A stretch of 32,000 nt of DNA, taken from positions 1,170,001 through 1,202,000 of the forward strand of contig NC_015067.1 in NCBI RefSeq assembly GCF_000196555.1, read 5' to 3'. Shown here piece by piece: positions 5,046 through 32,000 of this stretch (the stretch's first letter is position 1; each line of letters opens with the position of its first letter). Under the pieces are notes generated by a model, which did no database searches, was not told the DNA's origin, and was given only the letters and a program-made list of their open reading frames with translations. Made by a program: the position numbers and the translations under genes. The DNA comes from Bifidobacterium longum subsp. longum JCM 1217 (GTDB lineage Bacteria > Actinomycetota > Actinomycetes > Actinomycetales > Bifidobacteriaceae).

Positions 5046-5056
5046 TCGGGGTGAAA

Positions 5057-5985: not shown

Positions 5986-6046
5986 GACGCAACCCGGACG
6001 CCGTTCCGGGGGCGCATGTCACATCAAAGCTTAGAATCCCCCGGCT

Positions 6047-8659: not shown

Positions 8660-8889
8660 TACTCATCCACCTCCTCAAGATACTCCTGCACCCACTCGTG
8701 GATGATTGCGGCAATCGTCGTCCCACGCTCCGCAGCCGTCATCTTGAGCGCCTTCTTGTCGCTCACGGTGAGCGACAGCGAGAGCGTGGTGCGCTTCTCG
8801 TCCGCCGTCGTGTCGGCGACGACGGCCTCCTCTGTCTTCTTCTGCCCGGCCTCGCGGTCGGCGGCGTATTGCTCGAACATGTTCGCCAT
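8659..8889 (-). CDS. ribbon-helix-helix (CopG/Arc-like) DNA-binding protein
   Basis: I start it at MANMFEQY..., which is preceded by AAAGGAGG with 7-nt spacing. The segment TLSLSLTVSDKKALKMTAAERGTTIAAIIHEWVQEYL fits a beta-strand plus two-helix pattern. Its stop overlaps the methyltransferase start by 1 nt. Confidence 0.65.
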   Translation of the reverse strand: MANMFEQYAADREAGQKKTEEAVVADTTADEKRTTLSLSLTVSDKKALKMTAAERGTTIAAIIHEWVQEYLEEVDE

Positions 8890-8910
8890 GGCCCGACCTC
8901 CTTTAATCAT

Positions 8911-8926
8911 TTGCACAATTGCACAA
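8911..8926. promoter_or_regulatory. tandem 8-mer TTGCACAA TTGCACAA, candidate operator of the RHH/methyltransferase operon
   Basis: This direct repeat lies about 20 bp upstream of the RHH start, in the AT-rich divergent region between the RHH gene (-) and the exonuclease gene (+). RHH proteins typically bind tandem or inverted short repeats. Confidence 0.4.
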
Positions 8927-9066
8927 TCATACATCTTGCTTTATGGGATGCGCAGACGGAACATCGCCCTGACCTCCCAGAAGTGCCGGGACCGCACCCC
9001 GCGGAACCTTCCCAAGCATCCCCGTGGGATCCGCCCCCGTGGAATGCGTGACGCATACCCGGGGGC

Positions 9067-17912: not shown

Positions 17913-18608
17913 ATGACCGATCAGGAGCCGGGAGCCCAGCTCACCCAATCATACGAATCCCAGTCATACGCGCCGCAGGAGAGCAAGCGCCCCGAAATCA
18001 CGACCGTCGCGTTCGGCGGATACCGGACGGAGGATGTGGACCGTCTGGTCGACCAGTACGAGGAGAGGATGGCCGGATACCGGCGCAGCCTCGCCCGGCA
18101 GATCGCGATCGCCGACAACCTGAGGAACCTGAACACGCGGCTGACCGCCCAATTGGAGGCCGCCTGCCGGGAACGCGACGAACTGCGCCACCGGGCGGAA
18201 AGCCCGTTCGAGGCGGCCGGCAAGGCCGCGCAGGACCTCGTCGACAACGCGAGGAACACGGCGCGCGACACGATCGCGGAGGCGCGGGCGCAGGCAAAAG
18301 GCATCCTCGACGAGGCGAACGCGAAGGCGGGGGACGTCGTCGCGTCCGCGAAGCAGACCGCCGACGGGCTCGCCGAGGAACACAAGAGGGAGCATGACAA
18401 GGCGATGGCCGACCTCGCCGAGCAACGCGACGCGTTGAAGACGGAGCACGCGAAGGCCATGGCCGACATCGAAACGCGCCGCAAGGACGCGCAGACCGCG
18501 ATCGCGGAACGCGAACGACGGGCGGGGGAACTCGAACAACGGGCCAGAGGGACGGTGGACGAGATCCGGGAGACCCTGAAGAACGCGATCCGCACGCTCG
18601 ACGACTGA
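17913..18608 (+). CDS. DivIVA-domain coiled-coil protein
   Basis: The RBS reads AAGGAAAGGAAAC. ITTVAFGGYRTEDVDRLVDQYEERM matches the DivIVA-domain signature (F..GY...VD.fl). A long Ala/Glu/Arg/Lys coiled coil follows. Confidence 0.75.
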   Translation: MTDQEPGAQLTQSYESQSYAPQESKRPEITTVAFGGYRTEDVDRLVDQYEERMAGYRRSLARQIAIADNLRNLNTRLTAQLEAACRERDELRHRAESPFEAAGKAAQDLVDNARNTARDTIAEARAQAKGILDEANAKAGDVVASAKQTADGLAEEHKREHDKAMADLAEQRDALKTEHAKAMADIETRRKDAQTAIAERERRAGELEQRARGTVDEIRETLKNAIRTLDD

Positions 18609-18808
18609 AAACGAACGGGATCAAGGGGATGCGGGCATGCGGCCGTCCGGACCGTTTCGCCCGCATCACGATCCCCTCTCAAGCGCATACCGGGTGCGCA
18701 TTCTCCCAACGAAACGCGAACCAAGCAGCCCCATGATGGCGTGAGACGTGGAGCGACCACCCGCAAGGATGGCCTGCAAGCCAGAACAAACCAGTTTGCA
18801 ACGGACAA

Positions 18809-18874
18809 GACCATACCCGCGTCCATACGCCGGATCGGTCCAGCCCGGTTCGCCGCATGGACGCGGGTATGGTC
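18809..18874. other. perfect 18-bp inverted repeat GACCATACCCGCGTCCAT-N30-ATGGACGCGGGTATGGTC
   Basis: I read it directly from the sequence. It lies in the 315-bp convergent intergenic region between the DivIVA-domain gene and the methyltransferase C-terminal ORF. It could be a terminator or another structured site. Confidence 0.6.
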
Positions 18875-18923
18875 GGGCGGACGGCGACGCCCAGGAGCAT
18901 CCACGCCCAGACGTTGACGGGCG

Positions 18924-20234
18924 TCAGACGGCGAGCCTTTCGCGCACGCGGAGCGCCCAGTCGACCGCCATGGCGGCCTGCGGGGGCACGACCCCGTTGC
19001 CCAGGGCGCGCAGTTGGAGGTTCCTGTGATTGCCGTCCACATGCCGCCAGATCGCCGGATCGGTGACCCAGCCGTCCTCCAGGCCCATCATCCATTCCAC
19101 GAACCTCGGGGATAGGTGGGCGGCCGACGGGAACCGGGGGCCTTCGAATCGGGTCTTCCAATAACCGAGCACGCTTTTGTCGGGCAGACGGGTCGCGGGG
19201 ATCGGGATGTCCGGGTCCATGTCCTTGCAGCCGGGCCAGAACATGGGGTCGATGAGGCTCATCCCCCGGTCGGTTTCACGCCAGAGCGCGAGCATGCGGT
19301 CGCGCATCGGCTGGTCCAGCCGGGCTTTCGGATGCGCGTCGAACGGGGCGTGGCGGGCGAGCCAGTACGGTTCGAACAGCGTGGGGTCGTCGGCGTTCGC
19401 CCCGACCCAGCGGCGCAGGCCGCCGGTCGCCTGCGTGGGACAGGGGGCGGGACGGCCGGACACCCGCTCCCAGCGGCGGATCGCGGCGGCGAACCGGCCG
19501 AAGCGCACGCCCCGCCCGTCGTCCAGACCCCAGAGTCCCCCATGATAGGGGCCGGGCGCGGGGATCGCGCGCGTCCCCTGTTCGACGGCGCCGGTCATGC
19601 ATGTCTGGTCGTTCCTCTGATTGCGGCCTTTCACGTCGCTGGCGCGCGGCGTGGGCATCATATCCACATCATCCGTCATCACGTCCTCCCTCAGGTTCCC
19701 GGTCGAATCGCGTCGGCTCCCGTCCCGGTCGCCGCGACGCAGGACGCGTTCCAACGCGGCCCCGTCGCGGGGCGCGATCGCATCCATGCAGTTCGGCGTG
19801 GCGAACAGGCGGGCTTCCGGCAGGATGTCGATGTCGTCGCTCTTCTCCGCCCAGTCGGCGACGGTGACCGCATGCCCCATGGCCGCGCGGCGTTCCGGGA
19901 TCATCGTGCCCCCGTTCCACTCGTTCGACGTGGGCGTGGGCAGGTGGTCGATGTCGTCGCGCAGGTTCCGGTAGCCGGCGCCTTTTCCGGCGCGCGGCCG
20001 TTCCGCATCCGCATGCGGGGGCAGCATGTCCATACAGTTCGGCGTGCCCGGCAGTTCGTTTTCGCTCATGCCCGTCGTATGCGTTCCCATGATCCGGATC
20101 TCCCCCGCGTCGAGGATCGCGTTCACCAGGGCGACGCCCCGCCAGTTCTCCCCCGGCCGCCAGCAGCCGCGCACCGTATGCCGGGTCGCGTCCATCACCG
20201 TCGGCGTGGGCAGCCACAGATCGTCATCAGTCAT
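18924..20234 (-). CDS. C5-cytosine methyltransferase, C-terminal portion (TRD repeats plus motifs IX-X)
   Basis: LPTPT, TPNCMD, LPTPTSNEW and MPTPRASDVKG repeats are present. FGRFAAAIRRWERVSGRPAPCP and SPRFVEWMMGLEDGWVTD...QLRALGNGVVPPQAAMAV give the ENV-family C-terminal motifs (GNxVVP). Motifs I-VIII are absent. The start could be ATG 20234 or GTG 20240. Confidence 0.7.
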   Translation of the reverse strand: MTDDDLWLPTPTVMDATRHTVRGCWRPGENWRGVALVNAILDAGEIRIMGTHTTGMSENELPGTPNCMDMLPPHADAERPRAGKGAGYRNLRDDIDHLPTPTSNEWNGGTMIPERRAAMGHAVTVADWAEKSDDIDILPEARLFATPNCMDAIAPRDGAALERVLRRGDRDGSRRDSTGNLREDVMTDDVDMMPTPRASDVKGRNQRNDQTCMTGAVEQGTRAIPAPGPYHGGLWGLDDGRGVRFGRFAAAIRRWERVSGRPAPCPTQATGGLRRWVGANADDPTLFEPYWLARHAPFDAHPKARLDQPMRDRMLALWRETDRGMSLIDPMFWPGCKDMDPDIPIPATRLPDKSVLGYWKTRFEGPRFPSAAHLSPRFVEWMMGLEDGWVTDPAIWRHVDGNHRNLQLRALGNGVVPPQAAMAVDWALRVRERLAV

Positions 20235-20415
20235 GGCCACGGGTATGCGTCAGGCGGGGCAGGCGTATCGGATCATGGAAACGGGACGGTCCCCGCCGTT
20301 CCAGACCCTTAGTCTTGGCCGCATGGACATCATCCGCTTGACTTCCTCCCCCGCCTAAAGAGGCGGGAGTCTGCGCCACCCAAACAAAGATCAAGACTCC
20401 CAGTATTTCCTTCAT
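20227..20415 (-). CDS. possible 62-aa peptide with a hydrophobic N-terminus inside the methyltransferase intervening sequence
   Basis: GGGGGAGGA lies 6 nt before the ATG. The product reads MKEILGVLIFVWVAQTPASLGGGGS.... Its stop overlaps the next ORF start by 8 nt. The only support is the RBS and the open frame. Confidence 0.3.
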   Translation of the reverse strand: MKEILGVLIFVWVAQTPASLGGGGSQADDVHAAKTKGLERRGPSRFHDPIRLPRLTHTRGHD

Positions 20416-20708
20416 GCCCGATCCTCCCCCATGCCAATCCAATCTCACGAAATCGCGGGAATGGCCGAACAAGGTCTTCCCCCGATGGTCACGAACATGG
20501 ACGGGTGGTCGCCCATGTGGTCAAATACGCGAACGAGGCGGGGCGAGCCCATGCCGCTGCGATCCCGGTTCGGGTATCCGCTTTCCATACGAGGATCGCG
20601 CGATCCGGCTGGAATGGCGCGAGACGGGACCCGAAGGGCCTATGGACAAAGAAACCCGGCATGCCCGCGATTTCTCCATGCGCAACGAAGCCGACCATGC
20701 CCCGGGTC

Positions 20709-22238
20709 CTACAGGAGATTGATCGCATCCGCCAATCCGAGCTGCGCGCCCCGCCTCCGGCGGCGGACCGCATCCTCCGCTGTGCCCGCCTTCACGCTGT
20801 CGTACAACGCGTTCGGCGTGGGCAGCATGACGGCCGCCGTCCGCAAATCCGGCGCCCCGTCCCCGTGCACGCCCGCCCCGTTCGCATCGTTCGCCCTCGG
20901 GGTCGGCAGCTTCGAATCATGCTCCCTGACCTTCTCCGGGTCCATACGGCCCGGCAGGTCCATGAGACGCACCTGCGTGGACAGGAACGTGCTCCTGTCC
21001 AACGGGCGGCCCGACGTGGCCGGGGCGGCGAACACCCCGTCCGACTGCTTCGGCGTGTACAGGAACCCGTCGGCCGGGATCCCCGCAGCCTGCGCGGGCA
21101 GGGGCGCATCCCCCGTCCCATACGCCTGGCCCGGGCCGCCCTTCGCCCCGTCGGACGCCTTCGGCGTCGCCAAAACGGAACCGGCCGCCGGCTCCGGGAC
21201 CTTCAGCCACGATTCGGGCACCGTATACACGCGGCCGGCGGCCATCACGCCGGACTTCGGCCACGCGTCCATGAACACGTCCACGTCCCCGAACAGATCC
21301 GGCTCGCCCGTCGTCCACACATCCCTGTCCGCATCCCACACGCCCCATGCGCGCCCCCTCGGCCTCATGGGCGGCAGTTGGGCGAGACGCCTCAGCCGGG
21401 CGTTCGACGGTTCGCGCGCCGACTTCGGATCGCGCGGCCATGCGGTCACGAAGATGCGCAGCCTGTGGTGGGGGGCGCCGATGTCGGCCGCCTCAAGGCC
21501 TCGCCACACCGCGTCGTAGCCCAGATTCGCCAGATCGCCCAGCACACGGCCGAGCGCCCGGATCGTGGGCGCCGTATGCACGCCGGACAACCGTTCGTCA
21601 TCCGCCAGCACCATGTCGCCCCTCACCTCGAACACGCGGCGGCCGCACTGCCTGCACGTGACGGGCGAGCACCGCTCCGGATCCGCATGCAGGAAACCGC
21701 GCAGGACGACGGCCAGGGGCTGCGAGGTTTCCTCCTTGGGATCCGGGGCTTCGAATCCGTCGGGCAGTTCGAGGTCCGGAATTTCGCAGGAGCATAATCC
21801 GGCCTTGTCCAACGCTTCGGAGCGGAGCGCGTCCATGCGCTCGTCCTCCTTGGAGACGCTGATGCCGCTCAGGAGTCCGGCCACGTTCTCCGCGACCACG
21901 AGACTGGGGCGGATGATGCCGATTCCCTTGGCGTAGTCGAGCCACAGGCCGCTTCGCGTTCCCGCCTTCAACCCGGCACGGAACCCCGCAAGAGAAAGGG
22001 ACTGGCAGCAGAATCCGCCGGCCATCACCTCGATGTCCTTGTATTTCTCCCAGTCGATTTTCGTGATGTCGCCCAATCGGCGGGCTTTCGGCGCGTGATG
22101 GGAGCCAAGGGCGAGAGGCCCGGGTTCGATGTCGGACCATCCGACCAGTTCCCCCTCGCCGATCGCCTTGGATACGCCGATGTCGAGGCCGAGATAGCCG
22201 GAGAACAGGGAAATCGTCTTGTATGTCTTGTTCTGCAT
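20709..22238 (-). CDS. C5-cytosine methyltransferase, N-terminal portion (motifs I-VIII plus the start of the TRD)
   Basis: Motifs seen: ISLFSGYLGLDIG (motif I), GGFCCQSLSLAG (motif IV, catalytic Cys), VVAENV (motif VI) and LGYDAVWRGLEAADIGAPHHRLRIFVTAW (motifs VII/VIII). These are followed by LATPKASDGAKGGP, YTPKQSDG, LPTPRANDANG and LPTPNALYD repeats. It ends ...GAQLGLADAINLL without motifs IX/X. Confidence 0.8.
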   Translation of the reverse strand: MQNKTYKTISLFSGYLGLDIGVSKAIGEGELVGWSDIEPGPLALGSHHAPKARRLGDITKIDWEKYKDIEVMAGGFCCQSLSLAGFRAGLKAGTRSGLWLDYAKGIGIIRPSLVVAENVAGLLSGISVSKEDERMDALRSEALDKAGLCSCEIPDLELPDGFEAPDPKEETSQPLAVVLRGFLHADPERCSPVTCRQCGRRVFEVRGDMVLADDERLSGVHTAPTIRALGRVLGDLANLGYDAVWRGLEAADIGAPHHRLRIFVTAWPRDPKSAREPSNARLRRLAQLPPMRPRGRAWGVWDADRDVWTTGEPDLFGDVDVFMDAWPKSGVMAAGRVYTVPESWLKVPEPAAGSVLATPKASDGAKGGPGQAYGTGDAPLPAQAAGIPADGFLYTPKQSDGVFAAPATSGRPLDRSTFLSTQVRLMDLPGRMDPEKVREHDSKLPTPRANDANGAGVHGDGAPDLRTAAVMLPTPNALYDSVKAGTAEDAVRRRRRGAQLGLADAINLL

Positions 22239-22280
22239 ACGCGGCTGTATGCGTTCCGAGGCATTCGAAAAAACCCGTCA

Positions 22281-22335
22281 GCCGTTGCAGATGACTTCGC
22301 TCTGGCGACAAGCTAAAACAAAGTCATCTGCAACG
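22281..22335 (-). terminator. 16-bp perfect inverted repeat CCGTTGCAGATGACTT-N23-AAGTCATCTGCAACGG, followed on the minus strand by a T6 run
   Basis: It lies between the stop of 22338..22742 and the C5-methyltransferase start. On the minus strand the hairpin is followed by CTGACGGGTTTTTTCG. The T-run is 8 nt from the stem, so an attenuator or operator is also possible. Confidence 0.45.
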
Positions 22336-22337
22336 GA

Positions 22338-22742
22338 TCAATCCTCGACGATCCCGTCGGGCGTCCATTCGCATGCATAATAGGGTCCGTTGTCGGTCAT
22401 CCACCCGTCCTTCCCGTCCGCCGGACGCCCCTCGTAGCGGCTGATGTCGGCGATGGCCGGATCGTCGGTCTTGTGGAGGCGGATGAGGTCGCCCGGCTCC
22501 GGTTCGCGCCGTACGGCCTCGGGCAGCACGGCGTCCGGGTCGGGGAACGCGGAGCCGTCCCCGACCCAATGGTCGGTGCAGTCCGAGTCCACGATGTAGG
22601 ATTCGCCCGCATCGGTCCTGCCGGCCAATGCGGGGCGGAAGCGCGACCATTCGTCGCCGTCCCGTTGGATCAAGATCCCGCCTTTGATGCGGTCGAGGAG
22701 GCTTGCGGGCAGGTTCTCCCAACCGATGATGTCCTCGTTCAT
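22338..22742 (-). CDS. hypothetical acidic protein (start uncertain: 22742 or 22802)
   Basis: This is the C-terminal part of track ORF 22338..24026. It reads MNEDIIGWENLPASLLDRIKGGILIQRDGDEWSRF...GPYYACEWTPDGIVED. The upstream two thirds of the track ORF are antisense to the 22917..23996 gene. ACGCATGC lies 8 nt before ATG 22742. Confidence 0.55.
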   Translation of the reverse strand: MNEDIIGWENLPASLLDRIKGGILIQRDGDEWSRFRPALAGRTDAGESYIVDSDCTDHWVGDGSAFPDPDAVLPEAVRREPEPGDLIRLHKTDDPAIADISRYEGRPADGKDGWMTDNGPYYACEWTPDGIVED

Positions 22743-22875
22743 GCCCGCGCGCATGCGTCCCCGACGCATGGCCTCCGGTTCCGCGGACGGGTTCGAGGAC
22801 ATGGTGCTCACGGCCGTCGACCTCGGCATCGGCCCGACGACCATTCCCATCCGACGGACGGTCCACAAGACGACG

Positions 22876-22913
22876 ATCCGGCTATGCGCCGTCGCGGGGG
22901 CGCATAGCCGGAT
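22876..22913. promoter_or_regulatory. perfect 15-bp inverted repeat ATCCGGCTATGCGCC-N8-GGCGCATAGCCGGAT immediately upstream of the 22917 start
   Basis: I read it directly from the sequence. The right arm ends 3 nt before the ATG and contains the box variant GCGCATAG. Confidence 0.6.
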
Positions 22914-22916
22914 CGC

Positions 22917-23996
22917 ATGGTCATGGACAGGAACAATCGAAGCCACCGGGCGAAGGGCCTTCCCCAAGGGTGTGCGGGCACCTTCGAGCCGGCGTCCGGC
23001 ACGGCGGGCGGAGACGTCATGCCGCCCGCCGCCGAGGATCTCGACCCGAAACGCTACGGGCACAAGAGGGCCGTCAGGCTTGTGAACTGGCGGGTCGAAC
23101 ACGATCCGACCAGCCTGTGGCTGCAAGACCGGCTCAAGGCCACCATGCCCGGCGTGGACGCGGACGGCAACCCGTTCGACTACCGGGACGAGCCGGTGCT
23201 CGACCCGGCGGCCGAGGCGCGCATGATCGACGACGCGGTCTACCGGGAGGATGCGGACGGACGCCCGCACTACGGGCGGATCATGCGCGCCCTCGCCTCC
23301 TGGTATCCGAACGAGGCGGAACGCTTCGACATGGCGCGCAGGATCGCGGAGGACCGGTGCGACGCGCTGCGACGCAACGTGATCGGCGACCCGGCCCGAT
23401 GCTACTCCGCCAGGCTCGTCGGCTACGCGCTCACCCGCCCCGTGCGCATGGAGGCGATCCTCGCCCGTCCGCCCTACAATCTGAGCGCGCACCGGATGCG
23501 CGTCGGCAAACGGTACATGGACCGGATCGGCGCGTACGCGCGCGAACACGGCGGACGACTGCCCGACAAAAGGCAGCGCGACCGGATCTGGGACGAGAAC
23601 ATGGGCGACTTCATCCACGAGAAGATCGCGAAGGGCGTCCAGTACGGGCGCGGCATGTACTATTCCGACGGGTCGAACGCGCGCCCCGAATACCATGGGC
23701 GCCCGCCCCGTCTGGACGCGGACGGGAACCCGTTCAACGCGCGCGAGGACTTCGAACGCATGCTGGCCGCCGGACGTGCGGAGCTCGGTCGGACGCCCGC
23801 CGAATTCGACGACGTGGTCAACAGGATGGACGCGCATGCGGCGTTCGCCCCGGGGGGCGCGGACGCGCACGCCGCATGGGCGGAGGCGCGCCGGCGCGGC
23901 CTGGACGTGCGCCTGGTCGAGGCCGCGCTCGACGTGGACGCGTCGGACGCGGCCGCATGGGAGGCGGAGTATCAGGCGAGCTCGGGCACCCGGTAG
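22917..23996 (+). CDS. hypothetical protein with an N-terminal DRNNRxHRxxGLPQGxAGTFxP motif
   Basis: The 359-aa ORF has balanced composition (…WYPNEAERFDMARRIAEDRCDALRRNVIGD...YMDRIGAYAREHGGRLPDKRQRDRIWDENMGDFIHEKI...). It shares its first ~35 aa with ORF 28070..28453. Confidence 0.65.
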   Translation: MVMDRNNRSHRAKGLPQGCAGTFEPASGTAGGDVMPPAAEDLDPKRYGHKRAVRLVNWRVEHDPTSLWLQDRLKATMPGVDADGNPFDYRDEPVLDPAAEARMIDDAVYREDADGRPHYGRIMRALASWYPNEAERFDMARRIAEDRCDALRRNVIGDPARCYSARLVGYALTRPVRMEAILARPPYNLSAHRMRVGKRYMDRIGAYAREHGGRLPDKRQRDRIWDENMGDFIHEKIAKGVQYGRGMYYSDGSNARPEYHGRPPRLDADGNPFNAREDFERMLAAGRAELGRTPAEFDDVVNRMDAHAAFAPGGADAHAAWAEARRRGLDVRLVEAALDVDASDAAAWEAEYQASSGTR

Positions 23997-24493
23997 GTGC
24001 GGGGCACGGCCGCGCCCGCGGGCCACATGTCATGGTCGCGGGCGAACCTGACCGTCACGTTGACGACGGTCCCGGGCATGGGGCGGGCGAGCATCGCGTC
24101 CAGGCCCTTTTTGTCGCCGGCCAGCCAGAACACGAGGAGCGCGAGGTCCATGGCGCCGGCCGCGCATCCGGGCCTCGTCCCGACGAGCGTCGAAAGCGTG
24201 TCGCGCGCGGCCGTCAGCCGGCCGGGCCTGGGCGTGACGGGGATGGGACGGCGGCGCAGCACGTCCATCGCCTCCCCCATGCCGGCGGGCAGGCGCGGGT
24301 GATCCGCGGCGCGTGCGGCGAGCGTGCGCGCGTCGCACGTCGGGTCGAGGAGGGCGAGCGCCATCATGTCGCGTCCCCTGGGATCGTTCAGGCCGGCGGC
24401 GAGCCGGTCGGCGGTCTGGTCGTTCATCCACGTGCCCGCGCCGCCTTCGAGGCGCGCGATCCACTCGTTGGCCAGGTTCATGTAGTCTTCCAT
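23972..24493 (-). CDS. hypothetical protein
   Basis: GGAGGA lies 7 nt before ATG 24493. The product reads MEDYMNLANEWIARLEGGAGTWMNDQTADRLAAGL...LLVFWLAGDKKGLDAML.... It lies downstream of the N6/N4 methyltransferase on the same strand. Confidence 0.6.
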   Translation of the reverse strand: MEDYMNLANEWIARLEGGAGTWMNDQTADRLAAGLNDPRGRDMMALALLDPTCDARTLAARAADHPRLPAGMGEAMDVLRRRPIPVTPRPGRLTAARDTLSTLVGTRPGCAAGAMDLALLVFWLAGDKKGLDAMLARPMPGTVVNVTVRFARDHDMWPAGAAVPRTYRVPELA

Positions 24494-24548
24494 TGCCGTT
24501 CCTCCGTTTCGACGGTGTTGTGCGCCCCGGGTATGCGTTCCCCGTCCG

Positions 24549-25775
24549 TCAGAAGAGCGGGAGGCTTGCGGGGCGTTCGAGCCGGTCGGCCGTGAGCGGC
24601 AGGTACGTGGGGTCGAGCTCCGTGGCCGCGCACCGCAGGCCTTCCCGCCGGCATGCGTCCAGTGTGGTGCCGGAGCCGGCGAACGGGTCGAGGACGAGGC
24701 CGTGGGGCGGGCATGCGAGGCGGGCGAGCCATCGGGTCAGGTCCAGGGGTTTGACGGTCGGGTGGGCGAGCCGTCTTTCGCCCGCCGGCACGGTCAGGGC
24801 GAGCGCCGCCGTGTCGAGCAGGCACGCGGGGTACGCGTCCGCCCCGGATTCGAGTCCCAGGCGCGCGCAGCACGCCTTCCACGCCTTGTCCCGTGTCCGG
24901 GGGCGGACGATGCGTTCCAGGACGCGCACGGGCCTGTCCTGCGCTTTCGGGCAGTAGTAGAAGCGCGGCGCGTCCGCGGGCAGGAGCCGGGCCATGGCCT
25001 TGTCCATGAGGACGTTCGACGGGTGGCGGCCCGGTATGCGCGGCCCCATGGGCCTGGGCGTGTCCGAATCGCGGAACGTGTCGCCGCCGCGCGGCGCGTC
25101 CGGACGCCCCCCGGCGGTCGCGTTGAGCCGGTAGCGGCGCCCCAGCTCCCCCATGTCCGCGTCCAGGGCGCAGGCGGCCACGTTCAGGGCGCCCGTCCCG
25201 TGGTCCATGAGGTTGCGGCCGAGCATGGACTCGCGGGGGCGCTGGGCGACGAGGATCGGCTCCCATGCGGGTTTGAGCGCCGGGTTGAACCCGCGCCAGG
25301 GCCGCGCCTCGCGGGTCTTCGCCTCGTAGCGTTCCGTGTAGGCGACGTTGCGTTCCAGGGACGCGGAGTCGCGTATGACGCCGGTCCGGTCGTCCTTCAC
25401 GCCGAGCGCCCGGTCGACCGCATGGTCGCCCCATTCGCCCTTCGGCATGCCGGACGCGTACAGCCAGCAGAACTGGTCGCGGATCAGCCAGCCCGCGTCC
25501 TCCATGGCGCAGGCGAGCCGGTGCCAGGTGCGGGGCGAGCCGAACACGAGGGCGAACGCGCCGGGGCGGACCATGCCGAGCATGGCCGTCCAGAATTCCG
25601 GGTCGAAGGCGATGCCGGTGGAGTCCCAGCGTTTCACCTCGCCCGCGGTGCCCAGGCCGAGCTCGTAGGGCGGGTCGGTGACGATCGCGTCCGCGGGCGC
25701 GTCGAGGAGGCCGGGCAGGCGTCTCGCGTCCGCGTTGTACAGGGTCAGGCCGTCATGGTCGATGAATGGTCTCAT
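24549..25775 (-). CDS. beta-class N6-adenine/N4-cytosine DNA methyltransferase (DPPY ... FAGSGTT order)
   Basis: I start it at [20 protein letters not shown]. Motifs seen: [11 protein letters not shown] (motif IV), GRHPSNVL and [16 protein letters not shown]...[15 protein letters not shown] (motif I). The track ORF extends upstream only by reading through the box array (MMHTMHTR...). Confidence 0.85.
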
Positions 25776-25815
25776 GGGCCCCGTGTATGCGTCCGCCGGG
25801 GCGGGCGTCGGGCCC

Positions 25816-26114
25816 GTATGCATTCCGGGCGGGCTGTATGCATCCGTATGCATCGGGGGATGCATACATCTTTTCTTTCCGTTTCGGCTTGTTTCCGACG
25901 TTCCGGGGATGGTCCGGAGGCGTGTATGCATTGTATGCATCATTCCCTTATAGGGGATTCGGGAAAAAGGAAGGAAACCCCATATATTGATGCATACAAT
26001 GCATACAAGAGAAAGGAATTATATTTTTTCCTTTATATATAAGGGTTTTCGGGCCTTTTCCCAAGCCTTTTCTGTATGCATCCCCGGATGCATACAGATG
26101 CATACACGCATACA
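25816..26114. repeat. GTATGCAT box array, copy 3 (11 exact boxes plus 1 ACGCATAC variant; 20-bp-arm inverted repeat at 25923-25942 / 25988-26007)
   Basis: It has the same order and orientation of boxes and the same AT-rich core as copies 1 and 2. It lies between the N6/N4 methyltransferase start (25775) and the XRE gene. Confidence 0.9.
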
Positions 26115-26129
26115 AAACGGGCCGGAAAA

Positions 26130-26191
26130 CTTTACAATATTGTAAAGCCCCGGCCCCGGACTTTACAATATTGTAAAGTCCGGGGCCGGGG
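26130..26191. promoter_or_regulatory. 18-bp palindrome CTTTACAATATTGTAAAG (26130-26147) plus a 44-bp perfect palindrome (26148-26191) containing a second copy; candidate operators of the XRE regulator
   Basis: CCCCGGCCCCGGACTTTACAAT|ATTGTAAAGTCCGGGGCCGGGG is self-complementary over all 44 bp. It ends 28 bp upstream of the XRE ATG. Confidence 0.6.
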
Positions 26192-26219
26192 AGCCCGGCG
26201 AAACGGATCGGAGGATCGC

Positions 26220-26771
26220 ATGGAAGACGGGAACGTGAAGGCGACGCTCGACATGCTCGCCGGACTGGGACTGGACGTGCGCGTGATGCGCGAGACGCCG
26301 TTCCTCGCCGTCGTGGAGAACCCCGCCATCCCCTCGCGCAGGGTCGCCGTCGCCGTCCCGGACGGGGACGGGCCCGCCCGGGCCGCCATGTTCGAAACCG
26401 ACCCGCGCACCGGCCGCAACCGGCCGCACGGGGATTCCGCGGCCGTCCCCCGCGACGACCCGTGGCCGACGGTCGCCGGCATGTGCCGGACATGGCTGGC
26501 CGGGCTCGGCGCGCTCGGGGACGCCGCCGGGCTCACCCGGGCCGAACTCGCCCGCAGGACGGGCGTCGCGGCCACCAGGATCAGCGAATACGCCCGGCCG
26601 CGCCCCGGGCGCGCGGATCCCGCCAACATGACGCTGCGCACCGCCCGCGCACTGGCCCGCGCGCTCGGCGTCACCATCGACGCCCTGTACGACACCATGG
26701 CGATGCGCATCCCGGAAAACGGGCCGACGGCCCGACAGGCGGGAACATCCGATCCGGCCCGCCGGGCATGA
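26220..26771 (+). CDS. XRE-family helix-turn-helix regulator (HTH in the C-terminal half)
   Basis: GGAGGA lies 4 nt before the ATG. The product reads MEDGNVKATLDMLAGLG...GLTRAELARRTGVAATRISEYARPRPGRADPANMTLRTARALARALGVTIDALYD, which fits the XRE pattern. Confidence 0.7.
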   Translation: MEDGNVKATLDMLAGLGLDVRVMRETPFLAVVENPAIPSRRVAVAVPDGDGPARAAMFETDPRTGRNRPHGDSAAVPRDDPWPTVAGMCRTWLAGLGALGDAAGLTRAELARRTGVAATRISEYARPRPGRADPANMTLRTARALARALGVTIDALYDTMAMRIPENGPTARQAGTSDPARRA

Positions 26772-26776
26772 AAAAA

Positions 26777-26805
26777 GGCCCGCACGGCACGTCGCCATGC
26801 GGGCC
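26777..26805. terminator. bidirectional hairpin GGCCCGCA-N13-TGCGGGCC flanked by A6 on the + strand (T6 on the - strand)
   Basis: It lies between the convergent genes 26220..26771 (+) and 26821..27237 (-). On the minus strand the stem is followed directly by TTTTTT. Confidence 0.65.
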
Positions 26806-26820
26806 CGGGATGCGCCCCGG

Positions 26821-27237
26821 CTAGGGGCGGACGAGCAGGAAACGGTACGGGAGCGGATCCGTCTCGCCGCGCATCCACACGCGCAGCAGCGGCCACCCCG
26901 CGGCCCGCGCCGCCGACGCCGCATCCGACAGGTCCGAGACGGCGTCGACGATCAGGTTCGCGATCCCGTCCGCGGACACGAACGCGTCAGGCAGGCCCGG
27001 GATGCGCGCCGGCAGGCCGTCGCGCTCCATACGGTACAGCTCCCACACGTGCAGCACGCTCGCATCATACGGGTGCGCTTCCGGCCCCGCATGATCCGAC
27101 CCGTCGCGCAGACGCCCGGCGGCCGCGAGGGCGGCCGCATGCGGCAGGATCGCGACGAGCCTGTCCGCACGCCTGTCGAACTCGCGGACCGTCATGCCGG
27201 ACGGCATGTCACGGCTCGAATCCCACGCCACGTGCAC
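26821..27237 (-). CDS. hypothetical protein (start uncertain)
   Basis: ORF of 138 aa; an alternative start is MTVREFDRRADRLVAIL at 27195. I recognise no family. Confidence 0.45.
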   Translation of the reverse strand: MHVAWDSSRDMPSGMTVREFDRRADRLVAILPHAAALAAAGRLRDGSDHAGPEAHPYDASVLHVWELYRMERDGLPARIPGLPDAFVSADGIANLIVDAVSDLSDAASAARAAGWPLLRVWMRGETDPLPYRFLLVRP

Positions 27238-27307
27238 GTTCAGGACCCCGTCGAACGTCTCGAACGGGGTCAGCTTCGAATCGGCTATGATACGCCCCCT
27301 CTTCCGG

Positions 27308-27982
27308 TCAGACGCCCATGCCCGCGAACGGGTCCGGGACGCCGGCCGCCGACGCGTCCGGCAGGCCGAACGCCGCCAGCGGGTCGGTTTCGCCGCCGAT
27401 GCGCTCCCCGTCGCCCGTCTTGACGACCGCGTTCAGCATGGCGCCCACGCCCGAATTGTCCTGCCTGTACGGGTACAGCCAGATGTTGGCGCGCACGATC
27501 GCGCCCGAATACAGTTCGTTGGCGGTCAGACGTCGACGGTTCTGGTCCACGACCCAGCCCGCGGCGACGAGGTCGTTCTTCGTGCCGGCCTTCAGGATCC
27601 AATGGCCCTCATACTCCTTGTACACGTCCTTCTTCAGCTTGCCCACGTTGTCGCCCCTGGTGAACACGGCCGTGTCCCCGTCCTCGACGGGCAGGCCCAG
27701 GCGCTTCACCCAATCCGCGTCGTCCATGCTGTGCCCGGCGAACGGCGCGTACGACTTGCCGTCCCTGCCGGGTTCGCCGTCGATGCCGCGGCGGATCGCC
27801 TCCGTGCATTTGGCCTGCAGGTCGCGCATCATCTTCTGGGCGTCCGGATCCTTCTTGTCGAACAGGATGGACAGCGTGTACTTGCCGTTCTTCGGATCCG
27901 TGTCGAACAGGTGCGGGAAGTTCGCGATCCCGGGCACTGTCACGAGGTTCAGGCGTTCCGCCTGCTGGTTCTGGTCAGCCAT
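27308..27982 (-). CDS. DUF2815-type (phage/plasmid, T7 gp2.5-like) single-stranded DNA-binding protein
   Basis: GGAAAGGAG lies 7 nt before the ATG. KYTLSILFDKKD, PVEDGD, YEGHWILKAGTKN and ELYSGAIVRANIWLYPYRQDNSGVGAMLNAVVKTGDGERIGG are collinear with the DUF2815 family pattern (KYSvsiLipK.D, PlrDGD, Y.GhyfinA, vYSGcyarvsinfyaf...g.kGia.gLnnvqk..dGe.lgG). Confidence 0.75.
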   Translation of the reverse strand: MADQNQQAERLNLVTVPGIANFPHLFDTDPKNGKYTLSILFDKKDPDAQKMMRDLQAKCTEAIRRGIDGEPGRDGKSYAPFAGHSMDDADWVKRLGLPVEDGDTAVFTRGDNVGKLKKDVYKEYEGHWILKAGTKNDLVAAGWVVDQNRRRLTANELYSGAIVRANIWLYPYRQDNSGVGAMLNAVVKTGDGERIGGETDPLAAFGLPDASAAGVPDPFAGMGV

Positions 27983-28069
27983 CAATGGGCTCCTTTCCGA
28001 TCATGGTGGGCCGCCCCACGATGGTTGCGGTCCGACGGTTCCCGTCAGCGTCCGGTATGCGTCCCCGGC

Positions 28070-28453
28070 TCACGCGCGGATGCTTTCCGGCCGGAAGCCC
28101 ACGTCCTGGATGTCCGGCCCGTCGATGCGCACCGTCGTCAGCTCCCGCCCGTCGAACAGGGCCGCGTACGCGCCGTCCGCGAACGGGATGGAGTCGCCCG
28201 CGCACAGGGCGCCCGCCTCGTGGGCGAGCCGGCGCGCCTGCTCCCCGTCGCCCAGGTCCGCCAGCGATTCGATCCGGTCCTTCAAACCCCAGGCGCGCGC
28301 GTCGTCCTCCACGCCGCGCGCCCGCCCCCGCCGGCGGGCCGGCGGGGGCGGGACCACGTCCCCGCCGGCGGCCCGCATGGGCGCGAACGTGCCCGCATAC
28401 CCCTGCGGCAGGCCGCCCGGCCTGTGCGCCCTGTTGTTCCTGTCCACGCTCAT
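28070..28453 (-). CDS. hypothetical protein with an N-terminal DRNNRxHRxxGLPQGxAGTFxP motif
   Basis: The product reads MSVDRNNRAHRPGGLPQGYAGTFAPMRAAGGDVVPPPP.... Its ATG overlaps the upstream stop as ATGA. Confidence 0.6.
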   Translation of the reverse strand: MSVDRNNRAHRPGGLPQGYAGTFAPMRAAGGDVVPPPPARRRGRARGVEDDARAWGLKDRIESLADLGDGEQARRLAHEAGALCAGDSIPFADGAYAALFDGRELTTVRIDGPDIQDVGFRPESIRA

Positions 28454-29154
28454 TCCAGCTCCTTCCGGTCGTCGTCCCGCATGCTATGCGCCCGCCCGTC
28501 CGGCCACGCGTAGCCGCGCAGACGGGCGGGGAAATATTTCAGGCGCGACCGGTACAGCAGCCACGTGCGCAGGAGGGTCGGTATCCCGTCCGACTTGCGC
28601 AGGTTGTGGCGGGCGCACAGGCCGACCAGATTGTGCCGGTCCGTGGCCCCGCCCCTCGACCACGGGTAATGATGGTCCATATGCTCGATCGGCCCCCGGC
28701 ATCGCAGCAGGCCGAACAGGCCCCGATGCTCGCACCGGCCGCCCGCCGCCATGCGGATCCACGTCCGGTCCGCGTCCGGAAACAGGCGGACCGGATCCCG
28801 GTCGAACGGGTTGTCGGGCTTCGGCATGCGCAGGTTCGCGAGGGCCAGGAGCGCGATCAGGACGACGGCCGCGGCCAGAATCGGGACGAGGCGCGCGCCC
28901 GACGCGTCCCGGATCTGACGGAGCATGCGCGCCAGCCCCGCCGCACGCTCCCCCGCATGCCACGGGTCCACGGCCGTGTCCGCCGCGTATTCGGGCGAAT
29001 CCTCCGCCAGGCCGGCCCTGAGCCGGCGGGCCAGGAGCGTCCAGTACGCGCCCGCCAGGCCGCCCGCGCCGGCCAGCGCGCCCGCCGCGTACGAGGCGAC
29101 GCGGAGCAGACGGTACGCCTCCCAGGCGCGGCGGATCGTGCGCCGCACGCTCAC
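28450..29154 (-). CDS. membrane-anchored HNH endonuclease
   Basis: The GTG start overlaps the upstream stop as GTGA. There is a TM segment LVPILAAAVVLIALLALANL. The C-terminus reads CEHRGLFGLLRCRGPIEHMDHHYPWSRGGATDRHNLVGLCARHNLRKSD (HNH motif). Confidence 0.75.
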   Translation of the reverse strand: MSVRRTIRRAWEAYRLLRVASYAAGALAGAGGLAGAYWTLLARRLRAGLAEDSPEYAADTAVDPWHAGERAAGLARMLRQIRDASGARLVPILAAAVVLIALLALANLRMPKPDNPFDRDPVRLFPDADRTWIRMAAGGRCEHRGLFGLLRCRGPIEHMDHHYPWSRGGATDRHNLVGLCARHNLRKSDGIPTLLRTWLLYRSRLKYFPARLRGYAWPDGRAHSMRDDDRKELE

Positions 29155-29297
29155 AGCAGCCCGATCAGCCAGGACAGGAGCCGCCACACGGGGATGAGGA
29201 GGAACGAGCCCACGCCGATCAGGGCCGCCCACGGCGACCACCGGTCCGTGTCCGACGCGAACCGGTCGCGTTCCCTGTCCTCCGATTCGCGGCTCAT
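29151..29297 (-). CDS. 48-aa membrane peptide
   Basis: GGAGG lies 7 nt before the ATG, which overlaps the upstream stop as ATGA. The product reads MSRESEDRERDRFASDTDRWSPWAALIGVGSFLLIPVWRLLSWLIGLL. Confidence 0.55.
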   Translation of the reverse strand: MSRESEDRERDRFASDTDRWSPWAALIGVGSFLLIPVWRLLSWLIGLL

Positions 29298-30055
29298 CGC
29301 AACGCCTCCATGTCCCCGTCGGACGCGAGCCCCATGCGATTGAGGAGGCGCATCGCCGCGACCGCGTCCCCGTGCAGGTCCGACACCCATGCGGCGAGCG
29401 CGTCCCGGTCGGGCCGGTCGGGGAACAGGCCGGGCCAGACGCGCATGGCCGCGCGGATCACGCCCGTCGCCCCCTCCCGGTCGCCGTGCGCGTCCATGTC
29501 GAGGGCGCGCATGCCCGCCAACGCCAGATTGGCCGTCAACGCCAGGCCGGCCGTCCGCCGGGCGAACCCGATCTGCTCGCCGGCCGGATACCCGCCGGGC
29601 CAGGCTTTCAGCATGCGCGCGCGCATCCGTTCCACGACCAGCATCGTCCCCGCGTCATCCGCGTCCCCGTCGAGGGCGGCGAGCGTGCGGGCCGCCGCGT
29701 CCGCGTCCGACGGCGCGTCCTCCACGGACGCGTACCAGACGCCGTCCCCCGTGTCGGCGAGCAGGCCCATCGCGTCCAGGGCGACGGTGACGCGGGTCGC
29801 GTACCCCGGGTCCGTCTCATGCGGGTAGCGGGCCCAGATCTCGTCGGGCAGCCATGCGAACGGGAGGGCGAGCAGTTCCATGGTGCGCGGCGAATCCGGT
29901 CTGACGGCCATGGGTTCGGGTATGGGCAGCGGGCCCGTGCCGGGGGCGAGCAGCCATCCGGGCGGCGTGCCATGCCCCAGCTGGTAGGCGACGGCGGTCC
30001 GGTTGGCTTCGAGCAGTCGCGGGTCGGACAGGAGATACGGGTTGTGTTCGCTCAT
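29294..30055 (-). CDS. hypothetical protein
   Basis: The 253-aa ORF reads MSEHNPYLLSDPRLLEANRTAVAYQLGHGTPPGW.... Its ATG overlaps the stop of the TrbL-like gene as ATGA. Confidence 0.6.
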   Translation of the reverse strand: MSEHNPYLLSDPRLLEANRTAVAYQLGHGTPPGWLLAPGTGPLPIPEPMAVRPDSPRTMELLALPFAWLPDEIWARYPHETDPGYATRVTVALDAMGLLADTGDGVWYASVEDAPSDADAAARTLAALDGDADDAGTMLVVERMRARMLKAWPGGYPAGEQIGFARRTAGLALTANLALAGMRALDMDAHGDREGATGVIRAAMRVWPGLFPDRPDRDALAAWVSDLHGDAVAAMRLLNRMGLASDGDMEALR

Positions 30056-32000
30056 GCGCCCCTCCTATGCCGCGCCGTGTTCGCCCGCTGTTCGGCGAGG
30101 AACCTCCGGTAGTTCGGATCGTTGCTCTCGTCTGATATGTCGCCCCGCTGTTCGGCGCGGCTGAACCGCCGCTCCTCCGTGCTGCGCGCCCGTTCGCGTT
30201 CCAGGAGCGCGCGCGTCGCCTCGCTGTTCGACGCGGGTATGCGGATCGGACGGGCCGGCGTGGCGGCGCGTCCGGACGCGGGCCGGTTCGTCCGGCCGCG
30301 CCGCCGCATGTCGTTCAGGAGGCGTTCGCCGACGCGTATCAGCGTCCGCTCGTCCAACCCGTTGTTCACGGTCAGCTTGTAGCCTTTCCCGAAGCCGGCC
30401 AGGAGGGCGTTCTTCGACGGGGCGAGGGGCCGGGCGGGCGCGTCGGGGCGCGCCCCCGGACGGCCGGCCGGGGGCCGGGACGCGTCCGCCCGGCTCGCGG
30501 GGCCGTTCGCGGCGCGCATGCGCGACTGCGGGGAACCCTGGGCGAACGCGGGCCGGGACGGTGGGCGCGGGGCCTTCGCCTGCTCGTGGATGTCCTCGGC
30601 GAGCTGGCCGATGTCCTCGGCCGCCGTGTCGGAGCGCATGATCTTCCTCACCTGGCTTTCGAGCTCGTCGCCCCGCAGGGATTTCGCCAATTCGGCGCGC
30701 ACCTTGTTCTCGTATCGGACGGTCGCCAGCCGGTTCTCGTCCGGGGTGGGACGGTTCGCGAGATATTCGGTTCTCGCCCGCGCCTCCTTGTCTCTGGCGG
30801 CGATGGCCGCCTTGTCCGCCTGGCTGGGCCCGTGCCCGCCGGCCGACCGGCCGCCGCCCGTCATGCCATGCATGGCCGGCCCCATGCCCGCCTTCACCCC
30901 GTTCATCGCGGTCCCGGCGAACCCGCCGCGCCCACCGTCCTTCATGGCCATGCCCGCGGAGCCGAGCGCCATGGCGGCCGAGCCGCCGGTCGCCACGCAC
31001 ACGCCCGCCGCGATCGCGGCGCCCGCGGCCATGGTCAGGCCCCGTTTCATGCCGTTGCCGAACCCGGCGAGCTGGGCGAGGCCGGGCAGGCTGAACGGGT
31101 TGCCGATCCTCCACACCTTCACGCACAGGAGCTTCACGGCCTTCACGTACAGGATCGGCAGGAAGATCGCCGCGACGAGCAGGCCCGCGACCCCGCCCTG
31201 CGTGTTCCCGTCCGCGTCGACCAGGCCCAGGAGGGCCATGCCGATGTTGGTGAACAGGATGCCGAGACTGCCGAACAGGGCGACGACCGTGGGGCCCGCC
31301 ACCCATGCGAGCATCTGGACGAGCGCGTTGCCGACCGCCCGCCGGCCCGCGTCCGGGCTGACGGCGAGCAGGAGCAATGCGAGGAACAGGCCGAGCGCGG
31401 CCAGGCAGGCGACGAGCATGCTCAGCGTCTGCAGGCTGCCGCACAGCAATCCCCAGACGATCAGGTTCACCTCGCCGGCCACGCCGTTCAGGAACCCCTC
31501 CGACAGGGTGCCCAGGGAGCTTTTCCCGTGCTGCTGGTCGATGAGCCGGTAGGCGGCCGTGTTCTGCTGCATGTTCCCGCCGCCGTTCGTGAACACGAGC
31601 TGCTGCCAGCCGCTGGTCGCCGTGTTCACGTCGAACAGGAGCGTCAGGTTCGCGATCTCGCTGCGCTTGTTCGTCTTGTCCGAATCGTCGGTGACGGGCT
31701 TCGCCTTGTCCGCGTCGCCGCGCGTCACATAATACGTGTCGTTCCCGTCCGGGTCGATGCCGGTCAAAGCCGCCTCGCAGGAGGATGCGAGCGGCCCTCC
31801 CGCTTCCCGGCTGACGACGCCCGCCGCGGAGCCCGCCAGGGGTTTCCTCTCGATCGCGCCGACGAACTTGAAGCCCGCGCGCGCCTTGAACGAGCCGTCC
31901 GCATCCACCTTGCACACGTTCCACAGCATGACCCACCGGTCGAGCATCTGGGTGGTGGAATCCGCGGGCAGTTTCAGCGTGTACTGGACGCGCAGGTCCT
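30052..32000 (-). CDS. polytopic membrane protein, TrbL/VirB6-like conjugal transfer component; N-terminus probably beyond the right edge
   Basis: It has several hydrophobic helices (VNLIVWGLLCGSLQTLSMLVACLAALGLFLALLLLAV, AWVAGPTVVALFGSLGILFTNIGMALLGLV, VAGLLVAAIFLPILYVKAV, LTMAAGAAIAAGVCVATGG) followed by a long charged tail. The frame stays open upstream of the first Met to base 32000 (DLRVQYTLKLPADSTTQ-MLDRW). Confidence 0.5.
   Translation of the reverse strand, partial: DLRVQYTLKLPADSTTQMLDRWVMLWNVCKVDADGSFKARAGFKFVGAIERKPLAGSAAGVVSREAGGPLASSCEAALTGIDPDGNDTYYVTRGDADKAKPVTDDSDKTNKRSEIANLTLLFDVNTATSGWQQLVFTNGGGNMQQNTAAYRLIDQQHGKSSLGTLSEGFLNGVAGEVNLIVWGLLCGSLQTLSMLVACLAALGLFLALLLLAVSPDAGRRAVGNALVQMLAWVAGPTVVALFGSLGILFTNIGMALLGLVDADGNTQGGVAGLLVAAIFLPILYVKAVKLLCVKVWRIGNPFSLPGLAQLAGFGNGMKRGLTMAAGAAIAAGVCVATGGSAAMALGSAGMAMKDGGRGGFAGTAMNGVKAGMGPAMHGMTGGGRSAGGHGPSQADKAAIAARDKEARARTEYLANRPTPDENRLATVRYENKVRAELAKSLRGDELESQVRKIMRSDTAAEDIGQLAEDIHEQAKAPRPPSRPAFAQGSPQSRMRAANGPASRADASRPPAGRPGARPDAPARPLAPSKNALLAGFGKGYKLTVNNGLDERTLIRVGERLLNDMRRRGRTNRPASGRAATPARPIRIPASNSEATRALLERERARSTEERRFSRAEQRGDISDESNDPNYRRFLAEQRANTARHRRGA

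Follow-up and report, generated by a model that had tools for sequence, protein, structure and literature searches.

Temperate phages, lambdoid and other, carry immunity regions in which a CI/Cro-type repressor acts at tandem palindromic operators of 14–18 bp, and these regions occur as alleles such as imm434 and imm21. The Bacillus subtilis PBSX Xre repressor, founder of the XRE family, is autoregulated and has four operators between xre and a divergent promoter, while the global regulators KorA and KorB of IncP-1 plasmids act at palindromic operators present at many promoters; allelic cassette exchange is not known to have been described for KorA and KorB. Within the genus Bifidobacterium, the B. 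breve megaplasmid pMP7017 carries a conserved 34-bp promoter motif in 19 copies, which drives ~24% of its genes and has been proposed as a transcription-factor site (PMC10832533). Here we describe a locus in a 32-kb stretch of Bifidobacterium longum subsp. longum JCM 1217 (NC_015067.1, positions 1,170,001 to 1,202,000; hereafter the window), in which two copies of an 18-mer, CTTTACAATATTGTAAAG, one of them at the centre of a 44-bp perfect palindrome, lie between a ~300-bp array of GTATGCAT boxes and the gene for an XRE-family regulator, XRE1. The 18-mers are probably the operators of XRE1, and comparison with related loci shows that, at two loci, the palindrome cluster has been replaced jointly with the regulator gene, as a single cassette. 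In window coordinates the locus comprises:

24549–25775, minus strand: N6/N4 DNA methyltransferase gene, 408 amino acids (aa), Pfam N6_N4_Mtase E = 7e-19, pointing away from the array
25816–26114, no strand: array copy 3, with 11 exact GTATGCAT boxes and one degenerate box, between divergently oriented genes
26130–26147, no strand: 18-mer ‘a’, CTTTACAATATTGTAAAG, putative operator, containing the -35-like hexamer TTGTAA (26140–26145)
26148–26160, no strand: 13-nt spacer CCCCGGCCCCGGA, the left arm of the 44-bp palindrome
26161–26178, no strand: 18-mer ‘b’, CTTTACAATATTGTAAAG, putative operator, containing the -10-like hexamer TACAAT (26164–26169)
26148–26191, no strand: 44-bp perfect palindrome, made up of the spacer CCCCGGCCCCGGA, 18-mer b and TCCGGGGCCGGGG, the reverse complement of the spacer
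26210–26215, plus strand: Shine-Dalgarno sequence GGAGGA of the XRE1 gene, read directly
26220–26771, plus strand: XRE1 regulator gene, 183 aa, Pfam HTH_3/HTH_31, starting 28 bp past the palindrome

The positions given in the initial annotation were all exact when 25000–27200 was re-read. Array copy 3 has its boxes in clusters A (+++-), B (++), C (--) and D (+---), and the leader AGCCCGGCGAAACGGATCGGAGGATCGC is common to all XRE1 loci. With up to three mismatches allowed, CTTTACAATATTGTAAAG occurs at two sites in the window, which has a base composition of ~68–70% G+C, and at none in 100 shuffles.

Like the phage immunity regions, the XRE1 locus combines a helix-turn-helix (HTH) protein of the XRE/Cro-CI type with tandem palindromic, putative operators upstream that overlap a predicted promoter, and regulator and operators are swapped as a unit between otherwise homologous genomes. 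Unlike them, it has no divergent cro-like second regulator at XRE1, the divergent gene being the N6_N4 methyltransferase ~440 bp away, beyond the 300-bp array; the gene after XRE1 is convergent, the HTH of XRE1 is C-terminal, the sites are 31 bp apart, the cassette adjoins a 300-bp, 12-box array that is repeated many times in the element, and the element looks like a conjugative megaplasmid rather than a phage. PBSX Xre offers a comparable set of multiple palindromic operators (putative at our locus) in the regulator's own upstream region, whereas Xre itself is a small single-domain protein of a defective prophage, and Pfam, PDB and NCBIfam searches detected no relation between it and XRE1 beyond the HTH domain. 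The likeness to KorA and KorB lies in a plasmid-encoded repressor (putative here) with identical palindromes at several operons, including replication and its own gene, but the protein families and host phylum differ and IncP-1 plasmids are not known to have a shared multi-box hub. Finally, pMP7017 comes from the same host genus, is a distantly related element and likewise has a plasmid-specific motif repeated at many promoters; its motif (AWAYATGYTATACTGAATATGTCCACATAAAAWA) is however unrelated in sequence to the GTATGCAT arrays and the 18-mer, and is a single site overlapping the -10 element, in contrast to a 300-bp array with exchangeable operator cassettes. The palindrome-plus-XRE arrangement is textbook; the new part is its modular docking onto a repeated array.

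Beyond the window, our array sample comprises 58 pattern matches, with at least six arrays in one 186-kb IMG/VR contig (IMG 2687453622) and 40 further loci in human-gut metagenome contigs; many of these loci (designated by L numbers) are close relatives of one another, and the counts given below are not independent observations. The clearest evidence for cassette exchange comes from the methyltransferase locus, where the flanks of L080 and L083 are 97% and 94% identical and the DNA from the last array box to the end of the regulator gene (2855–3614) is unrelated, the two regulators being 40% identical over 107 aa. The palindromes differ accordingly between the two, with four copies of TCTCCAGTACTGGAGA spaced 32, 21 and 31 bp in L080, and TTTACAATAATGAGAAC, its reverse complement, GTTCTCAATACTGAGAAC and TTTACAATAATGGGAAC in L083. 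At the helicase locus, L052 has nine ACAGTACA..ACGGACTGT sites, mostly 31 bp apart, before the paralogous regulator XRE2, and L060 has ATAC-N6-GTAT sites before another paralogue, XRE3; here too the flanks are conserved, at 95% identity, around an operator-plus-regulator segment that shows no relation between the two. The XRE2 site sequence is ACAGTACACTGACGGACTGT, and L074 provides a second intact XRE2 locus alongside L052. At both loci, then, operator cluster and XRE gene have been exchanged together as one cassette. The swapped segment holds no gene besides the XRE gene; one of its boundaries falls within the conserved array and the other where the regulator gene ends, and neither falls in the palindromes.

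L080 and L083, which encode the full-length XRE1 relatives P0030 and P0020, keep the gene order of the window (methyltransferase, array, regulator, convergent small open reading frame (ORF), single-stranded DNA (ssDNA)-binding gene). Between the window and L080/L083 the methyltransferase is 72% identical and two neighbouring ORFs 58–63%, against 31–44% for the regulator, which aligns only in part to that of L083; the ssDNA-binding gene (40–41%) is the only neighbour to have diverged comparably, and the GTATGCAT boxes are kept. The N6/N4 methyltransferase gene also stands beside an array in L008, L035, L038 and L040, at 95–97% identity. Each regulator allele or paralogue comes with its own palindrome family, and since the site sequence tracks the regulator allele while position, dyad and phasing are kept, the palindromes bear the signature of cognate operators; on these comparisons of sequence we consider the assignment of the 18-mers to XRE1 probable. 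The initial annotation had gone further and paired each array with its own operator and regulator, which agrees with the alternative cassettes at these two loci but not with the majority of arrays, which have no regulator of their own and either borrow the 18-mer or carry none.

XRE1 is made up of an N-terminal alpha/beta domain without a family label and a C-terminal XRE HTH at residues ~100–157, recognised by Pfam HTH_3 (28.1 bits, cut-off 23) and HTH_31 (28.0 bits, cut-off 27); it also matches the PHROG transcriptional-regulator families (E = 5e-8), and sequence searches against PDB and NCBIfam returned nothing significant. Relatives are rare, with only about 30 matches at E ≤ 1e-3 among 1.84 billion representative proteins, few of them full length. 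The paralogues and alleles XRE2, XRE3, P0030 and P0020 were compared with it, and the first residues of the predicted recognition helix differ from allele to allele (VAAT, TTGS, IAPA, MGAG, ISTG). The XRE1 gene is monocistronic and is followed by a convergent 138-aa ORF without a family match, a layout that is kept in L035, L080 and L083; no toxin gene is co-transcribed with XRE1, as would be found with a type II antitoxin of the HigA, HipB or HicB-HTH kind. In L008, which lies on the 186-kb IMG/VR contig, an insert at 770–2647 with ORFs of 202 and 396 aa, presumably IS607-like (serine recombinase plus TnpB) judging from the gene sizes, sits exactly between the XRE1 Shine-Dalgarno sequence and ATG, and parts XRE1 from its putative operators and predicted promoter.

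The initial annotation had also pointed to a search for further CTTTACAATATTGTAAAG sites. None was found in the window beyond the two already described, and ~397 kb of related DNA, surveyed with up to three mismatches, yielded 42: 39 beside the D end of an array, two at contig starts outside array coverage, and one, in L079, truncated at a rearrangement junction ~780 bp from the nearest array. The sites are confined to the right (D) end, and one to three copies are present at 27 of the 47 arrays for which the right flank is long enough. Their placement is strict, the first 18-mer starting 138–141 bp after the start of cluster C in 24 of these 27 arrays (161 bp in the other three, all XRE3 loci), and 14 of 15 neighbouring pairs being exactly 31 bp apart with a 13-nt spacer. 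The spacers themselves vary, with five sequences in all (CCCCGGCCCCGGA, its reverse complement, GTCGGAGGTGAGG or GTCGGAGGTGAGA, and GTGAGGTTCCTGA), and are found in both orientations: the window has CCCCGGCCCCGGA, and L025, L063 and L066 carry the reverse-complement form. Strict phasing and conservation of the 18-mer over many loci, despite drift in the spacer, argue for selection on the sites.

Downstream of the 18-mers lie XRE1 (window, L008, L035, L037, L039), a primase-polymerase gene (L014, L042, L046, L061), a 106-aa ORF heading a nucleotidyltransferase/helicase operon (L025, L063, L065, L066) and the gene for XRE3 (L045, L060, L072). Because at least four different genes, or none, follow it, the 18-mer is not private to array copy 3 or to the XRE gene, and its distribution suggests that the genes bearing it could form a regulon. 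The three XRE3 loci have a canonical XRE1-type 18-mer between two ATAC-N6-GTAT sites, ~32–33 bp centre-to-centre from each, and the presence of an XRE1-type 18-mer amid XRE3-type sites suggests cross-regulation between regulator loci. Matches to the 18-mer in four low-GC viral contigs (L030–L033) were set aside as unrelated chance matches. A resemblance to NrdR boxes, which are tandem 16-bp palindromes 31–32 bp apart, was rejected because of a 2-bp difference at the dyad centre and the absence of nrd genes.

A candidate promoter coincides with the 18-mers. The best sigma-70-like match in 25760–26225 consists of TTGTAA (26140–26145) and TACAAT (26164–26169) separated by 18 nt (9/12), the first hexamer falling in the right half of site a and the second in the left half of site b, with its mirror image on the other strand; inside array copy 3 no canonical promoter match scored above 8/12. 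This arrangement fits the Bifidobacterium promoter consensus from the pMP7017 study, in which the spacer is 17 ± 1 (PMC10832533), and a similar pair, TTCTCA-18-TACAAT, was read by eye in L083. The two 18-mers may thus together form the promoter, which would overlap the operators. We propose that XRE1 dimers bind both 18-mers, probably cooperatively; 31 bp is about three helix turns, so both palindromes would be bound on the same face of the helix. The sigma-70-like promoter of XRE1 itself would be built from both sites, with a predicted start near 26176–26178, and since such a promoter is made of operator sites, binding by XRE1 would shut off its own transcription. With a promoter within the 18-mers and canonical Shine-Dalgarno sequences on the regulators, promoter occlusion would be the most economical mechanism. 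Through identical D-end sites XRE1 might in addition gate a small regulon consisting of the primase-polymerase gene, the nucleotidyltransferase/helicase operon and XRE3, and operators and regulator gene together would be a single specificity unit, exchangeable as a cassette and docked at the right-hand end of the GTATGCAT array. The 44-bp palindrome would be a local by-product, which arose when the sequence flanking a palindromic site on one side was duplicated, as its reverse complement, on the opposite side.

If this proposal is right, the locus represents an immunity-like switch in which a small, fast-evolving repressor and its operators are swapped as a cassette, and from which that repressor cassette controls replication and DNA-processing genes at a shared promoter hub. 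It would offer a handle for predicting the coexistence of elements, a starting point toward the factor that reads the GTATGCAT boxes and, as at least five allele/site pairs are now described, a set of orthogonal repressor/operator pairs ready for use in Bifidobacterium genetics.

Several observations weigh against assigning the 18-mers to XRE1 in this way. The XRE1 of L035 has recognition-helix changes (V116I, T119S) and keeps the canonical 18-mer, and inside the lineage of the window no covariation of recognition-helix variants with 18-mer variants was seen. An intact XRE1 homologue in L040 (92% identical) has no upstream 18-mer and an extra GTATGCAT box; the same is true of L038, where the XRE1 copy is frameshifted before the HTH. 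Conservation of the 18-bp palindromes next to homologous regulators, on which the initial annotation had staked its reading, is found in L008, L035, L037 and L039 but not in L040 or L038, and its view of the 18-mer pair as XRE operators gains from the co-replacement at two loci while autoregulation through the 18-mers, given L040, is not universal. Four loci (L006, L041, L069, L078) have an 18-mer pair without any rightward gene. A lone 18-mer is insufficient for the proposed promoter, and for arrays that lack the 18-mer some other means of driving the right-hand genes is needed. Close kinship of many loci inflates the counts, and an AlphaFold2 model of XRE1, built from a 4-sequence alignment, had a pLDDT of 52 and was unusable.

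The palindromes could instead act as nucleic-acid structures, either as a cruciform in supercoiled DNA or as a hairpin in a leader RNA made from the array, serving as terminator, insulator or processing site before XRE1, an explanation that we regard as quite improbable; the initial annotation had suggested a cruciform or leader hairpin for the 44-bp palindrome. The hairpin at 26148–26191 is certainly very stable, its 22-nt arms being 100% complementary without a gap; folding gives -32.3 kcal/mol for the DNA hairpin (z = -10) and -65 kcal/mol for the RNA over 120 nt (z = -8.6). A second, overlapping near-palindrome of 51 bp at 26129–26179 takes in 18-mer a, spacer and 18-mer b (25-nt arms, 92% complementary), and extended dyads recur elsewhere in different registers: in L006 arms of 10 bp follow one mismatch, in L035 the dyad reaches 5 bp further outside both sites, the XRE2 dyad of 59 bp consists of two inverted sites, and a perfect dyad of 39 bp is present in L083. 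The pMP7017 study moreover proposes that GC-rich hairpins lacking a U-tract act as terminators (PMC10832533). On the other side, perfect complementarity beyond the 18-mer extends over 13 nt in the window and 0–3 nt at all other loci; the complete 44-bp palindrome is found in the window only, with 18-mer b and the right arm also present in L039, an independent assembly, and in L008, L037 and L069 the flanks, also 13 nt long, do not complement each other. Single and direct tandem sites also exist, and a constant 13-nt spacer of free sequence points to a spacing constraint on duplex DNA. A scan found no intrinsic terminator at 26148–26200, where the palindrome is followed by AGCCCGGCGAAACGG and no T-run, the only terminator-like match in the region lying within the array. 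The folded RNA does not pair with the Shine-Dalgarno sequence, Rfam returned only generic miRNA-precursor hairpin matches far below the gathering score, and with a promoter in the 18-mers the transcript would begin inside the palindrome. Arms confined to the window, the missing T-run, an uncovered Shine-Dalgarno sequence and no Rfam match together indicate that this is not a conserved structure, and a cruciform or RNA-hairpin role is not supported. Template switching and palindrome inversion are known mutational mechanisms, and we infer a recurrent extension of palindromes around palindromic sites, via template switching or inversion between repeats.

Whether such events account for the sites altogether bears on a further explanation, that the palindromes are recombination sites or template-switching by-products with no regulatory role. 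Spacers in both orientations (window versus L025, L063 and L066), an 18-mer copy number that varies from 1 to 3, truncation of the L079 18-mer exactly at a rearrangement junction and frequent tandem duplication of the arrays are all in keeping with it; since, however, the cassette boundaries fall in the array and the regulator 3′ end rather than in the palindromes, and phasing is strict and the 18-mers perfectly conserved amid drifting spacers, we hold it to be very unlikely. A different protein of the element or of the host, acting at the array hub, might alternatively bind the 18-mers, XRE being merely one downstream gene. This would accommodate the 18-mers that precede at least four unrelated genes or none, the near-fixed distance of the first 18-mer from the last box in most arrays, and the XRE1 of L040 without 18-mers, but it predicts conserved sites, whereas the sites change with the XRE allele while the boxes stay constant, and the segment that is swapped has the XRE gene as its only gene; binding by another protein is thus unlikely.

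The GTATGCAT box occurs 35 times in the window against 0.37 expected, and makes up three ~300-bp arrays at 4750–5044, 5336–5630 and 25816–26114. The 47 aligned array copies share 78–98% identity across the full ~300 bp, boxes and non-box sequence alike. At the left (A) end a gene running outward starts ~15–40 bp outside the array in every case inspected, and at the right (D) end the right-hand gene starts 40–400 bp outside. A search with the gapped array pattern gave 0 matches in one-genome-per-species contigs, and a literature search for GTATGCAT with Bifidobacterium returned primer coincidences only. The idea that the whole array forms one large hairpin was rejected, since the box clusters are mutually complementary and the intervening sequence is not. 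Tandem array duplication is frequent, with a period of 445–620 bp (window 4750–5630, L055, L057, L062, L065, L070), and ‘empty’ or truncated cassettes lie between tandem arrays, window copy 2 carrying 55 bp of the helicase 5′ end; the arrays look like hotspots of unequal recombination. A recurrent junction with a hairpin, TTGACGTCCTCCCC-ACGCCTGAAGGCGGGGG-CACCCTCACGGCAAAACGG, is present in L047, L056, L059, L062, L065 and L070 (between tandem arrays) and in L054/L058, and in several metagenome contigs substitutes for the XRE1 coding region after codon 0–6; its origin may be a deletion scar or one end of a small mobile element.

Three further features of the window concern the boxes near start codons and the remains of an XRE2 cassette at array copy 1:

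25785–25792, minus strand: start-proximal box, ACGCATAC in mRNA sense, 9 nt before the methyltransferase ATG
5057–5076 and 5144–5163, no strand: two ACAGTACAnnGACGGACTGT sites, putative leftover operators of the paralogue XRE2
5222–5251, plus strand: the opening 10 codons of XRE2, joined to a duplicated segment from the helicase 5′ end

The repeat ACAGTACACNGACGGACTGT at array copy 1 had been taken in the initial annotation for the operator of a regulator of its own, an idea that has been strengthened: it matches the XRE2 sites, of which the intact locus has nine. The helicase locus of the window is degraded, XRE2 being cut after 10 codons at a GGGTTC microhomology with the duplicated helicase 5′ end, and two XRE2-type sites, ACAGTACACNGACGGACTGT, remain. 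To the left of array copy 1 the PIF1-like helicase gene itself (822–4714) is split by an IS21-family element (istA 2818–4284, istB 2060–3133) into an N-terminal part at 4403–4714 and a C-terminal part at 908–1963. The two copies of GCTGTACAG described as an ‘operator’ at array copy 2 are not counted here, as they lie within the reading frame of a truncated hicA (C-terminal ...GALVRKILAKDVGLSEVEIREILK). What is left of hicA, ~25 codons from its 3′ end, runs into the start of a hicB-like gene of 74 aa that appears intact (5690–5985 in all), and the hicA toxin gene is truncated where the array was joined.

A variant box, GTATGCGT, is present in 13 copies in the window, where 0.65 would be expected, and at eight sites ACGCATAC is followed 7–9 nt on by the ATG of an ORF of at least 60 aa. 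Boxes of the GTATGCGT type are located at 4723, 9051, 17832, 17849, 20077, 20243, 22247 and 25785, and also at 13709, 24531 and 28055; those at 17832 and 17849 are two outward-facing boxes between divergent start codons only ~40 nt apart. The start-proximal ACGCATAC box sits roughly at the usual Shine-Dalgarno position and is also present in the diverged loci L080/L083, while the XRE1–3 genes, unlike many cargo genes, have a normal Shine-Dalgarno sequence without it. Candidate functions for this box are an element-specific promoter serving near-leaderless mRNAs, a signal for translation and a stoperator-like site. A broader picture, possible but on balance doubtful, is one of two-layer, element-specific control, with a shared layer of GTATGCAT/ACGCATAC boxes and a variable layer of operator-plus-XRE cassettes. 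In such a scheme the boxes form 12-box hubs between divergent operons and also stand singly, in sense orientation, 7–9 nt before many starts, where they may serve as a private promoter or translation signal, and the cassettes would plug into the hubs and act like phage immunity alleles, setting the compatibility or exclusion of co-resident infant-gut elements.

The host element looks like an undescribed lineage of megaplasmid-like conjugative elements of Bifidobacterium, distantly related to pMP7017, as judged from gene content and protein similarity. The homologues of the XRE1 protein carry B. longum names, and the window encodes at least four DNA methyltransferases, an Enc34-type ssDNA-binding protein, an exonuclease, an HNH protein and the PIF1-like helicase. 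Related contigs encode a 1382-aa AAA_10 (conjugation-type) ATPase, a primase-polymerase/DUF5906 protein, a sortase and a SpaA-type pilin; the ATPase is 26–33% identical, over 58–98% of its length, to proteins of 170–198-kb B. longum megaplasmids and of B. breve pMP7017. Searches of phage and plasmid DNA collections, including PLSDB, with the 444-bp region and with 18000–32000 found no relevant similarity, the matches being only short methyltransferase similarities to mycobacteriophages. Large conjugative elements of Bifidobacterium are barely understood, and they carry restriction-modification, adhesion and replication genes between infant-gut strains.

Other observations concern the cargo genes. 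Window 6000–9000 is a lower-GC island (44–59%) with a short tandem repeat at ~6330–6395, a type I specificity-subunit fragment at 6346–6870 and a 600-aa N6 methyltransferase gene at 6857–8659; in L011 the latter gene directly adjoins an array. The C-5 cytosine methyltransferase of 509 aa at 20709–22238 has a counterpart of 769 aa with a weak Hint (intein) match in L035 (284–2593). Finally, the ORFs at 22917–23996 (359 aa) and 28070–28453 (127 aa), otherwise unlike, are ~62% identical over their N-terminal ~40 residues (DRNNRxHRxxGLPQGxAGTF), a common segment that might be a targeting or interaction module.

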